Assembly: GCF_988243305.1 (NCBI RefSeq)
Contig: NZ_OZ547136.1
Direction: 5' to 3' (one strand)
DNA: 64,000 nucleotides
Shown: one piece after another, positions 60,001 through 64,000 of the stretch
Layout of the letters: each line of letters begins with the position of its first letter
Position numbering within the stretch: position 1 is the first letter of the stretch
Position numbers: made by a program

Positions 60001-63000
60001 CAGTTGTTCCGTGGAAAGGTTGGTTAGCATTAACGAAGCGGCAATAACCGGCGCTTTTAGTGAACGTCCGGCAAGAAAATAGCCTTGTTGCGATCCGGTA
60101 TCTGTTTTGCGGACCTTCCACCAGGTGATGACCGCCACCAGCAGCGTAAAACCGACAAAACTCAAGATTTGTAACGAATTCATCTCATAGCCCTTATTTA
60201 TGTTTATGTCCCGGACGCATGAATATAGGGAGAGGTAAAATGCGTCGGGTCAGGCAGTCAGATTCTTAAAATACAAACGTCGTATCCCTGAACGGATTGT
60301 TTTCTGTTAAGTTCAGGTTGTGAGCATAATTCGCCGGAGGGATATTAAAATGAATGGAAAATTGCAAAGTTCGGATGTAAAAAACGAAACTCCGTACAAT
60401 ATTCCCTTATTGATTAACGAAAATGTGATCTCCAGCGGAATTTCTCTGATCTCGCTCTGGCATACCTACGCCGACGAGCATTACCGGGTGATCTGGCCGC
60501 GGGACAAGAAGAAACCGCTTATCGCCAACTCATGGGTTGCGGTGTATACCGTACAAGGATGTGGGAAAATTCTTTTAAAGAATGGCGAACAAATAACTCT
60601 GCATGGCAACTGTATTATATTTTTAAAGCCAATGGATATTCACTCTTATCACTGTGAAGGTTTAGTCTGGGAACAGTACTGGATGGAATTTACCCCCACC
60701 AGTATGATGGATATTCCCGTCGGTCAGCAAAGCGTTATTTATAATGGCGAAATTTATAATCAGGAACTCACCGAAGTTGCTGAGTTAATTACTTCACCAG
60801 AAGAAATAAAAAATAATCTGGCAGTCGTTTTTCTGACGAAAATTATTTATCAGTGGATTTGTCTTATGTACGCAGACGGTAAAAAAGATCCACAACGGCG
60901 GCAAATTGAAAAACTAATTGCCACTTTACATGCCAGTCTGCAACAACGCTGGAGCGTAGCTGATATGGCTGCCACGATCCCCTGTAGCGAAGCCTGGTTG
61001 CGTCGTCTGTTTTTACGCTATACCGGCAAGACGCCGAAAGAATATTACCTCGATGCACGTCTGGATCTGGCGCTATCGCTATTAAAGCAACAAGGGAACT
61101 CGGTTGGCGAAGTCGCTGATACGCTCAACTTCTTCGACTCCTTTCATTTCAGCAAAGCCTTTAAACATAAATTTGGTTATGCGCCGTCAGCCGTGCTAAA
61201 GAATACGGACCAGCACCCAACGGATGCCAGTCCACACAATTAACGTAACTCTGGCCAGTACGCTTTGTTGGCCTCCAGCAAATCATCCAGAATAGCTTTG
61301 GCGACCGAGGCGCTCGGTACCGTTTTCGACAACGTAATCGCCTGCCACAGGTGCTGATATGAACGCTGTTCCCAGGCGTCCACGACCAGTTTTTCCACCG
61401 CCACTTGCTGACTCATTAACCCTTTCTGAAACTGCGGGATATCGCCGACCACCAGTGGTTCTGGTCCGTTGTGCCCGACCAGACACGGGATCTCGACCAT
61501 CGCTTCATCATCAAAGTTATGGATTGCCCCGTTGTTAGGCACAATCAGCAACATCCGCTCCTGAGTGTTGAAGGCAATTGCCGCCGCCAGATCGACGATG
61601 TATGACGCATGTTCGTCAATTTCCAGCTTGCCCGCCGCTGAATTTCCTGCCGCCGTAATGGCGCGGCAAGCATCGAAAACCTGTTTCTCGCGATGTTCCA
61701 TCACCTCATTCGCGCGGGTATGTTCAGGGTTGGAATGCTGAACGACATAATCCGGGAAGAGATAATATTTCAGATAGGTATTCGGTAATGTATCCGGGTC
61801 CAGAGCCTGGACATCCCGCGCTTTTGCATAGGTGTCGTTCCAGCTCGCTTCAGTATGTGTATCTTGCTGCGGTGGAACATAACCGTGCTTAGAGACATAT
61901 TGCCGCAGCTGGGGCATCAGGTCGTTGCCCTGCAAATCTTCAATTGATGTCCACCAGCCAAAGTGGTTCAGGCCGTAGTAGCGCACGCGCATCTGTTTGC
62001 GATCTTGCAGCCCAACAATTTGCGCCATCCGGCTTTCAATACCGATTGGCATGTCACAGATGTTGAGGATTTTCGCATTCGGGCGCAGACGACGCGTGGC
62101 TTCTGCGACAATAGCTGCCGGGTTGGAGTAGTTGAGCATCCAGGCATTTGGTGAATATTTTTCCATATAATCCACCAGTTCCAGGACGCCGCCAATGGAA
62201 CGCATGCCGTACGCTATTCCGCCGGGTCCGCAAGTTTCCTGACCAACAACGCCGTGGCGCAGCGGGATTTTTTCATCCAGTTCGCGCATCGGGTATTTGC
62301 CGACGCGGATGTGCGCCATGACAAAATCAACGTCGCTGAACGCCGCTTCAGGATCGGTGGTGTAACTAAACGCAATGTCCGGCGCTTTCTCTTTAAGGAT
62401 GACTTTACAGGCTTCAGCAATGACTTCCTGCCGCGCGCCATCGTTATCATAAAATTTCAGTGCACGAAGCGGGAAACGGTCCTGATTCGCCAGGAGCATC
62501 AACACGATGCCTGGTGTAAAGGTGCTTCCACCGCCTGCGACAACCACTGAGAATTTGGTCATTATACTGCCTCCGTAATGGCAACATTTTCTGCTGATTG
62601 ATGAGAATTAATTAAGCTATCGAGCTGTTCACGCAGCTGGGATACATGCAGACCAATGATCACCTGAATGGCATCGCCACTACGGAAGACGCCGTGCGCT
62701 CCCAGCTTTTTAAAGACTTCGTCATCCAGCGTTTGTGACATGTCATGCAGTGCAATCCGTAGACGCGTCGCGCAATTGTTGATGCTGGAGATATTGCCGA
62801 CCCCGCCCAGGGCTTGCAGGATACCGGCAGCCTGATCCAGCTCTTTTTTTGGCTCTGCCGCGGTGGTTTGGCCTCGCGAGGCTTTATATTCGGCTTTTGA
62901 GTAGAGTTTCACTTCCGCATCTTCACGTCCCGGCGTGCACATGTTGAATTGCAGAATCAGGGTGCGGAAAACCACGAAGTACAGCAGGGTAAAGCACAAC

Positions 63001-64000
63001 CCAATGGCGATTTGGGTCAGCATCATATCCGCGTGGTTGCTGAACATCGGGATCCAGTTTTGCGGTAAAACCTGGTCAATCAAACCACCGCCCATGTTGC
63101 CCACCACACCAAAGAGGTACATCACGGTCGACATTGAGGCCGCCAGCACGGCGTGTACCGCAAACAGCAACGGTGAAATGAACAGGAAGGTAAATTCCAG
63201 CGGTTCGGTAATTCCCACCAGCATGGCGGTTAAGGTTGCGGGGATCAGCAAGCCCGCCACTTTTACCCGATTTTCCGGTGCGGCAGTGAAGTACATCGCT
63301 AAAGAAATGCCCACGGCACCAAAGATTTTTGAGTTACCGTGCAGGGCAAAACCTCCTTCCGGGAACAACGATTTCAGCGGCTCGGCGCTCAAACTGAACT
63401 CTTGCAGATGCTGCGCCCAGTACATCTGAATGCCGCCTTCAACAGCTGCCGGACCAAAGATAAACGGTCCGTAGATGAAGTGGTGTAAACCGGTTGGGAT
63501 CAGAATACGTTCGAGGAAGGTGTAAACCCACACCCCAAGCGCACCCGCCGAACGCAGGAACGCTTGCAAAGATTCAATCCCCATTTGTACTTTTGGCCAG
63601 CCGAGCAACGTCAGCCAGGCGCAGGGGATCATCACCAGGAAGGCGATAATCACCACATAAGATGTCCCCTGGAAAATGCCGATAAACACCGGCAGTTTTT
63701 TATCGAACAGGCGGTTATGCAGCGCCGTCACAATGCCGGAAATGATAATCGCGCCGATAATGCTGGTATCGAGAGTTTTAATCCCCGCCATCATTGTCAG
63801 CCCGCTACCTGCCACCGCGTCCTGAGTGAAATCGACGCCGAAGTAGCTTCCCCAGGTCATTCCCATCGCGTTGATGAAATAGTTCCAGGTCAGGAAACTC
63901 ACCATCACCGCCAGACAAGCACGCCCCTGCGCTTGCTTCGCAAGGCCAATGGGTAAACCGACAGCAAAAATCAGCGGCATATTACGGAATACCGTCCAAC

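Follow-up and report, generated by a model that had tools for sequence, protein, structure and literature searches.

A probable undeleted glvCB-glvG operon in Escherichia coli, predicted to specify an alpha-glucoside PTS pathway

The AglAB system of Klebsiella pneumoniae supports growth on sucrose isomers, methyl-alpha-glucoside and isomaltose. E. coli has been reported to gain the use of isomaltose from AglA and AglB, AglA functioning with the IIA-Glc of the host, and Crr dependence has been described for both AglA and GlvC, the K-12 homologues of AglA and AglB being cryptic or truncated (PMC5309279). The source organism of PDB entry 6DUX is likewise K. pneumoniae (PMC9933657). Within E. coli, glvG was recorded as complete and glvB-glvC as fused in REL606, with glvG of MG1655 being a pseudogene (PMC3446290 Table S1, 2012), and glvC was listed as absent from phylogroup B2 (Touchon et al. 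2009). An intact glv state is already known in E. coli and is not special to the strain considered here.

The present analysis concerns a stretch of 64,000 nucleotides (NCBI RefSeq assembly GCF_988243305.1, contig NZ_OZ547136.1), referred to as the window, the end of which very probably carries the undeleted E. coli glvCB-glvG operon, which corresponds to K. pneumoniae aglA-aglB and to Bacillus subtilis glvC(malP)-glvA (Table 1).

Table 1. Features of the glv region, in window coordinates
Feature	Coordinates	Strand	Basis or content
yidL, AraC-family regulator gene	60350..61243	+	PGAP coordinates carried over from L001; Pfam HTH_AraC, HTH_18, AraC_binding
glvG (aglB/glvA homologue)	61240..62562	-	440-aa ORF, Pfam, PDB homologues, PGAP name
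8-bp direct repeat AGTGGTTC, copy 1, K-12-type deletion edge	61454..61461		Junction sequences
508-bp glvG segment deleted in K-12-type alleles	61462..61969		MAFFT alignment
8-bp direct repeat AGTGGTTC, copy 2, opposite deletion edge	61962..61969		Junction sequences
glvCB/glvG junction	62562..62574	-	Sequence reading: GGAGG Shine-Dalgarno (62570-62574), then TAA/ATG overlap
glvCB (aglA homologue), 3' part, codons 60-538	62562..64000	-	TIGR02005, open frame, MEI003 full-length copy
glvCB codon 369	63072..63074	-	CAG (Gln) in window, TAG in K-12

Gene content and predicted pathway of the glv region

The hydrolase gene, which a preliminary description of this DNA had held to be full length, was confirmed as an ATG-initiated ORF of 440 aa with zero internal stops. 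Its product contains both Pfam domains of the GH4 family, namely Glyco_hydro_4 (PF02056, residues 6-184, 224.5 bits, E 9.5e-67) and Glyco_hydro_4C (PF11975, residues 195-415, 190.1 bits, E 6.5e-56). Collinear, gapless alignment to PDB 6DUX extends over residues 1-439 with 90.0% identity (E 1e-276), and a gapless alignment to B. subtilis GlvA (1U8X) over residues 3-439 with 73.2% identity (E 1.3e-225), the matches to 6-phospho-beta-glucosidases being much weaker (1S6Y, E 1.8e-61). For GlvG, none of the NCBIfam models scored above its cutoff, those for other GH4 members falling well below (alpha-galactosidase, 180.7 bits against 486; AglA, 69.3 against 650); the family assignment was thus taken from Pfam and the PDB homologues, and the NCBIfam library appears to be without a model for the 6-phospho-alpha-glucosidase subfamily. 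The name given by PGAP to a sequence identical to that of the window GlvG is "6-phospho-alpha-glucosidase."

The NAD+-binding glycine motif of GlvG, GGGS, occupies residues 10-13, and C169-D170-M171-P172 lies within the octamer NICDMPIG (residues 166-173), which is the same in 6DUX and 1U8X. According to Thompson and Hall, the CDMP signature is said to set phospho-alpha-glucosidases apart from other GH4 specificities. GlvG residues C169, D170, H200 and Y263 are aligned with C171, D172, H202 and Y265 of GlvA, which we take to be Mn2+ ligands (Cys and His) and the catalytic Asp and Tyr, in the GlvA numbering of Rajan 2004 and Yip 2007. By family membership, GlvG is thus predicted to be a GH4 NAD+/Mn2+-dependent 6-phospho-alpha-glucosidase.

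The adjoining gene was correctly described as encoding an EIICB component, its frame being open as far as the window edge. The window holds 1,439 of the 1,617 nt of glvCB, comprising 478 sense codons and the stop, and the remaining 178 nt, with the first 59 codons including the start codon, lie beyond the edge together with the promoter. The 472 aa contained in the window alone score 847.6 bits against TIGR02005 (alpha-glucoside-specific PTS IIBC; cutoff 607.3), matching profile positions 65-524 of 524, and glvCB is accordingly assigned, by this profile, to a predicted fused PTS EIIC-EIIB of the alpha-glucoside-specific family. Both the GITEP motif (residues 322-326) and the IIB Cys469, situated in NNCATRLR, fall within the window, and domain searches found no IIA domain in GlvCB.

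Because the window stops at glvCB codon 60, the locus might be only apparently intact, glvCB being broken in the 178 nt or the promoter past the window, or either gene being inactivated by allele-specific missense changes. Of 16 alleles compared, that of the window stands furthest apart (24-48 differences over 2,432 nt). Against this, MEI003, which is 100% identical to the window over 61240-64000 and shows 4 differences in the last 8,761 window bases, has a complete 538-aa glvCB ORF (PTS_EIIC 10-346, PTS_EIIB 453-482; Pfam), and both glvCB and glvG were annotated as intact in 11 of 11 undeleted genomes inspected (MEI003, O157:H7, BL21, REL606, SC418 and 6 others). Furthermore, at the 3 positions where window GlvG differs from that of E. 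coli B (A73, D255 and D427), the window residue is in each case that of the Klebsiella enzyme. A sequence search with the last 25 kb of the window gave SC418 as the best hit in the genome collection, at 99.1%. Such hidden inactivation is therefore considered very unlikely.

The glvCB stop TAA (62564-62562) and the glvG ATG (62562-60) have one A in common (TAATG), a 1-nt overlap implying that the two genes would be coupled in translation. By analogy with the described systems, phosphate from PEP would travel along EI, HPr and IIA-Glc (Crr, the gene for which lies elsewhere) and reach Cys469 in the IIB domain of GlvCB, an alpha-glucoside would be imported by the IIC domain and released as a 6-phospho-alpha-glucoside, and GlvG, with NAD+ and Mn2+, would then oxidize C3 and eliminate the aglycone, yielding glucose-6-phosphate and the free aglycone. 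The genes crr and ptsHI belong to the E. coli core genome and lie outside the window. The substrate range, the Crr dependence and the regulation by YidP are what we infer, as would be any expression of the operon.

The flanking gene yidL is convergent with glvG, the stop codons of the two overlapping in TTAA (61240-61243), and yidP, encoding a GntR/UTRA regulator, is divergent from glvC. Control of glvCB-glvG is probably exerted from the glvC-yidP intergenic region beyond the window, where a palindrome with 17-nt arms (L001 9085-9118) adjoins yidP. A scan of L001 5900-9400, the operon and this intergenic region included, returned 0 sigma-70 consensus promoters, although an activator-dependent promoter would escape such a scan. 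A "potential SOS box" has been attributed to glvB in a review of the SOS response (PMC6590174); this candidate was dropped, as the 14.8-kb MEI003 locus contained 0 LexA-consensus matches at up to 3 mismatches.

Decay in K-12 and occurrence across the species

The statement in the preliminary description that glvG is disrupted in K-12 proved accurate. Alignments with K-12 glvG/glvC and B. subtilis GlvA placed no internal frameshift in the window glvG, and K-12 glvG was not intact: a 508-bp deletion causes a frameshift after His200, and the gene (b4556) is annotated in NC_000913.3 as an 815-bp pseudogene, with glvB and glvC as separate CDSs. The deleted segment is retained in the window. A MAFFT alignment of MEI003 with a K-12 derivative contained a single gap, of 508 columns, which equals exactly the spacing of the two AGTGGTTC copies (Table 1), and the deletion junction was the same in 6 of 6 deleted alleles. 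A second lesion, absent from the earlier account, is the K-12 amber codon at position 369, which leaves two shorter genes, glvC (368 aa) and glvB (161 aa), in place of glvCB.

Of the 5,426 complete E. coli genomes surveyed, 4,279 had the glv locus, and glvG was undeleted, as judged by presence of the 508-bp segment, in 1,652 (~30%), O157:H7, BL21 and REL606 among them. A 34-mer search of the same genomes found codon 369 as CAG in 3,921 and as TAG in 348, and the 5 TAG carriers among the matches listed were all laboratory strains of K-12 type. As K-12 glv is decayed and its amber codon occurs in just 348 genomes, K-12 pseudogene calls are unfit for transfer to other E. coli.

Both genes displayed low dN/dS values, of 0.063 for glvG (38 synonymous-only polymorphic codons against 10 with replacements) and 0.027 for glvCB (53 against 7), which suggests, at the level of coding sequence, that the glv genes may be kept by selection. 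The same 508-bp microhomology deletion was found on at least 3 different flanking haplotypes, implying that it has arisen more than once or has been spread by recombination. In wild strains without the hydrolase the transporter is intact, with a protein change in 1 of 27 polymorphic codons, a retention which hints at a role of GlvCB independent of GlvG. Taken together, the dN/dS values, the deletion haplotypes, the listing of B2 without glvC and the transporter kept without its hydrolase would fit an actively maintained pathway for a yet-to-be-named natural alpha-glucoside, the loss of which may be favored in some lineages; we regard this broader interpretation as improbable.

Phenotypic evidence and the state of the operon

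Whether such an operon is used is addressed by published phenotypes. REL606 gave zero Biolog PM2 signal on maltitol, palatinose, turanose and arbutin (PMC3446290 Table S5), and its glvCB and glvG are both intact. GlvCB of the B lineage, however, carries L320P, two residues before GITEP, and G357S, and B-lineage yidP is frameshifted, so that the REL606 result is not cleanly transferable to the window allele. VITEK-2 typing of 56 field E. coli, one of them an O157:H7 isolate and all without glv genotyping, scored 100% as palatinose-negative (PMC9631374). Literature searches returned no positive report of glv-linked alpha-glucoside use in E. coli. The E. coli type strain and E. albertii, whose glv genotypes were unchecked, were left out of this comparison.

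These observations bring forward the possibility, which overlaps with the undeleted-operon interpretation and which we rate at slightly below even, that an operon with intact genes stays silent (cryptic) under ordinary conditions, in the manner of bgl or cel, an activating mutation or a further inducer being needed. It would account for the four negative REL606 wells, which hold alpha-glucosides or related compounds, for the palatinose-negative result in 56 of 56 E. coli although ~30% of genomes have intact genes, and for the finding of 0 consensus promoters. To our knowledge, standard identification tables also score E. coli as negative for alpha-methyl-glucoside fermentation, which points the same way. 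Conversely, dN/dS values of 0.03-0.06 in both genes are hard to square with an operon that is never expressed, the B-lineage transporter with its two substitutions may itself be defective, the palatinose-negative field isolates were scored without genotyping, and isomaltose, trehalulose, leucrose and maltulose were left out of the substrates tested.

Alternatively, the glv system could be active on a natural substrate outside the classic AglAB/GlvA range, such as a different alpha-linked glucoside of dietary, plant or host origin, which would reconcile the low dN/dS with the negative scores for palatinose, maltitol and turanose. Since GlvG has 90% identity to its K. pneumoniae counterpart and shares the CDMP region with it unchanged, and GlvCB scores well over the TIGR02005 cutoff, and since relatives so close are usually alike in specificity, we consider a shifted substrate unlikely.

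Returning to the undeleted operon as the favored explanation, the negative results of intact-genotype strains on several classic alpha-glucosides lead us to view it as structurally competent and evolutionarily maintained, with a function that is predicted or conditionally silent. The proposal that a functional alpha-glucoside PTS pathway may be present in this strain holds in part: at the sequence level the motifs, the TAATG overlap and the dN/dS values argue for it, and the phenotypes of REL606 and of the palatinose-negative isolates argue against it. The meaning of the locus lies chiefly in correct annotation, K-12 being a decayed reference with two lesions, and in metabolic models of non-K-12 strains the predicted alpha-glucoside PTS route may be entered as a flagged candidate. 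There remains a contrast between the ~1,650 sequenced E. coli that keep both genes under purifying selection and routine tests that register no alpha-glucoside use.

Comparison with described glv and agl systems

MG1655 has its glvC (b3683), glvB (b3682) and glvG (b4556) between yidL and yidP, as in the window, and outside the deletion it differs from the MEI003-type operon by 42 substitutions in a 3,234-column alignment (~1.5% of shared positions). It carries both the glvG deletion and the codon-369 TAG, whereas the window carries neither. Closer in state are the loci of E. coli B (REL606/BL21) and O157:H7, in which glvG and glvCB are uninterrupted (440 and 538 aa), like the MEI003-type locus, although the B lineage departs from the window allele in GlvCB L320P and G357S and in its frameshifted yidP. 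At I166 the window GlvCB differs from every other GlvCB sampled.

In B. subtilis, GlvA (maltose-6'-phosphate glucosidase; 73.2% identity over 437 residues) has in common with GlvG the GGGS motif and the aligned Cys171, Asp172, His202 and Tyr265. The gene order nevertheless differs, being glvA-glvR-glvC with an RpiR-type activator in B. subtilis and glvCB-glvG with a divergent yidP (GntR/UTRA) and a convergent yidL (AraC) in E. coli.

The K. pneumoniae genes for AglA (EIICB) and AglB (PDB 6DUX and 6DVV) follow the same order as glvCB-glvG, transporter first and GH4 hydrolase second. AglA and the window GlvCB belong to the same TIGR02005 subfamily, and neither has a IIA domain. AglAB nonetheless supports growth, whereas E. 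coli REL606, with its intact glv genes, and the O157:H7 isolate were negative on the alpha-glucosides tested.

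Integrity of the glvCB-glvG operon

The tail of the window comprises the E. coli yidJ-yidK-yidL chromosomal segment followed by the glv genes (see table). The preliminary description of glvG as full length was borne out by its 440-aa product, which harbors both GH4 Pfam domains and aligns without gaps to the K. pneumoniae protein of PDB 6DUX (90.0% identity, E 1e-276; PMC9933657) and to B. subtilis GlvA (PDB 1U8X; 73.2% identity, E 1.3e-225). Both structures represent solved 6-phospho-alpha-glucosidases, while 6-phospho-beta-glucosidases are far weaker matches (E about 1e-61). 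GlvG retains the NAD-binding GGGS, the CDMP motif (C169-D170-M171-P172), H200, and Y263; C169, D170, H200, and Y263 are the alignment counterparts of GlvA C171, D172, H202, and Y265, and we take these Cys, Asp, His, and Tyr positions to perform the roles assigned to them in the GlvA literature.

The glvCB product, whose first 59 codons, like the promoter, fall beyond the window end, matches the alpha-glucoside-specific PTS IIBC model TIGR02005 with 847.6 bits (cutoff, 607.3) and contains GITEP at residues 322 to 326 and the IIB phosphorylation cysteine, Cys469, within NNCATRLR. GlvG and GlvCB both look catalytically competent. Because the glvCB TAA stop and the glvG ATG have one base in common, with GGAGG located 7 nt upstream, the two genes look to be translationally coupled. 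Strain MEI003, which is 100% identical to the window over 61240-64000 and differs at four positions in the last 8,761 window bases, has the entire gene, which encodes a 538-aa EIIC-EIIB fusion; the next gene is yidP, a divergently oriented GntR/UTRA regulator gene. PGAP names this fusion “PTS sugar transporter subunit IIB” in MEI003 and all RefSeq matches, a label that apparently derives from the GlvB equivalog model NF007255 (161 aa) and that understates the protein.

The glvC-yidP intergenic region of MEI003 spans 295 bp and harbors a palindrome, which is a plausible candidate operator for the adjacent YidP. A scan of positions 5900-9400 of the MEI003 locus (L001), including this region, returned no sigma-70 consensus promoter, a result that counts against a functional pathway.

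Elsewhere in the window, an inserted low-GC islet separates uhpA from ilvN, two genes that are neighbors in REL606. The two ORFs of the islet had no Pfam or PADLOC match at E<=0.01; SC418 carries the same insertion, annotated as two hypothetical proteins. The window also contains selC, a classic island integration site, which in REL606 is followed by an integrase-led island.

Coordinates of features in the window and in related loci
Feature	Position	Strand	Description
selC (tRNA-Sec)	13083-13177		
Low-GC islet	47500-50999		33-43% GC; flanks about 55%
Islet ORF 1	47564-49054	minus	496 aa
Islet ORF 2	49309-50616	minus	435 aa
glvG	61240-62562	minus	440-aa ORF
Direct repeats, 8 bp	61454-61461 and 61962-61969		AGTGGTTC; flank the K-12 deletion
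Segment absent from K-12	61462-61969		508 bp
glvCB, 3' part	62562 to window end	minus	open frame, 478 codons, directly upstream of glvG
glvC codon 369	63072-63074		CAG; TAG in K-12
MEI003 glvCB	L001 7323-8939		538-aa EIIC-EIIB fusion
MEI003 palindrome	L001 9085-9118		17-nt arms AGAGATCTACGTTTTCG/CGAAAAAGTAGACATCT, 82% complementary, no spacer; beyond the window
glvCB of glvG-deleted wild strains	L013-L017 1415-3031		full length
M23917 IS200/IS605	L005 3279-5394		in place of yidI through most of glvCB
H9Ecoli IS200/IS605	L011 1-604		in place of yidL (75-bp remnant), adjoining intact glvG

Lesions in K-12 and their distribution

Alignment of MEI003 to a K-12 derivative, together with a check of NC_000913.3, identified two lesions in K-12: a 508-bp deletion in glvG, which produces a frameshift directly after the Mn ligand His200, and a stop at glvC codon 369, which leaves the transporter as two separately annotated proteins, GlvC (368 aa) and GlvB (161 aa). 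The preliminary description of K-12 glvG as disrupted was therefore correct, and the window copy is free of internal frameshifts.

The glv locus is present in 4,279 of 5,426 complete E. coli genomes, and 1,652 retain the 508-bp segment (about 30% of the full set and about 39% of those with the locus), the other ~2,600 locus-bearing genomes showing a query coverage of only 82%, which corresponds to the K-12-type deletion. Codon 369 is CAG in 3,921 genomes and TAG in 348; all five TAG strains among the matches listed are K-12-type laboratory strains. The ~1,150 genomes without a glv match fit the published finding that glvC is missing specifically from phylogroup B2 (Touchon 2009, PMC2617782 Table 5). 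Both genes are annotated as intact in 11 of 11 undeleted genomes inspected, including O157:H7, BL21, REL606, and SC418. The intact locus is thus a common and already known allele, the difference between B and K-12 (glvG complete and glvB-glvC fused in REL606; glvG a pseudogene in MG1655) being in print (Yoon et al. 2012, PMC3446290 Table S1).

The deletion junction was identical in all six deleted alleles (L002 and L013-L017), which lie on at least three distinct flanking haplotypes; deleted TW01221 differs at 5 sites from undeleted H9Ecoli and at 27 from K-12. One junction on several haplotypes implies that slippage at the 8-bp repeats has recurred or that recombination has spread the deletion. 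In all five wild strains with the deletion, glvCB is still intact, with a replacement in 1 of 27 polymorphic codons (dN/dS 0.016), reflecting either hydrolase-independent use of the transporter or diversity older than the deletion. An IS200/IS605 element (tnpA and TnpB) was observed at the locus in two genomes, M23917 and H9Ecoli.

Evidence for and against a functional alpha-glucoside pathway

Across nine intact alleles, dN/dS was 0.063 for glvG and 0.027 for glvCB, which suggests that both genes are maintained by selection. The B-lineage alleles (BL21, SCZE5, and REL606) combine a yidP frameshift with GlvCB L320P and G357S, L320 being located two residues ahead of the conserved GITEP. Well C06 of Biolog plate PM2A presumably holds alpha-methyl-D-glucoside. 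In PMC3446290 Table S5, PM2 C06 is labelled alpha-methyl-D-galactoside (signal 0/0), a name also given to PM1 D08 (signal 247/240); if C06 is alpha-methyl-D-glucoside, REL606 is negative on this substrate too.

The preliminary proposal of a functional alpha-glucoside PTS pathway is partly supported: the genes are intact, but function is unproven. Against function, REL606, in which both genes are intact, scored zero in the PM2 wells for maltitol, palatinose, turanose, and arbutin (PMC3446290 Table S5), and an O157:H7 strain and 55 further E. coli field isolates, tested without glv genotyping, were all VITEK-2 palatinose negative (PMC9631374), these data covering only part of the AglAB substrate set. 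The B-lineage yidP frameshift and GlvCB replacements may account for the negative phenotype of REL606 or may confound it. In favor of function, besides the dN/dS values, the homologous AglA/AglB pair operates in E. coli using host IIA-Glc (PMC5309279), and at GlvG residues 73, 255, and 427 the window, unlike E. coli B, agrees with the Klebsiella enzyme.
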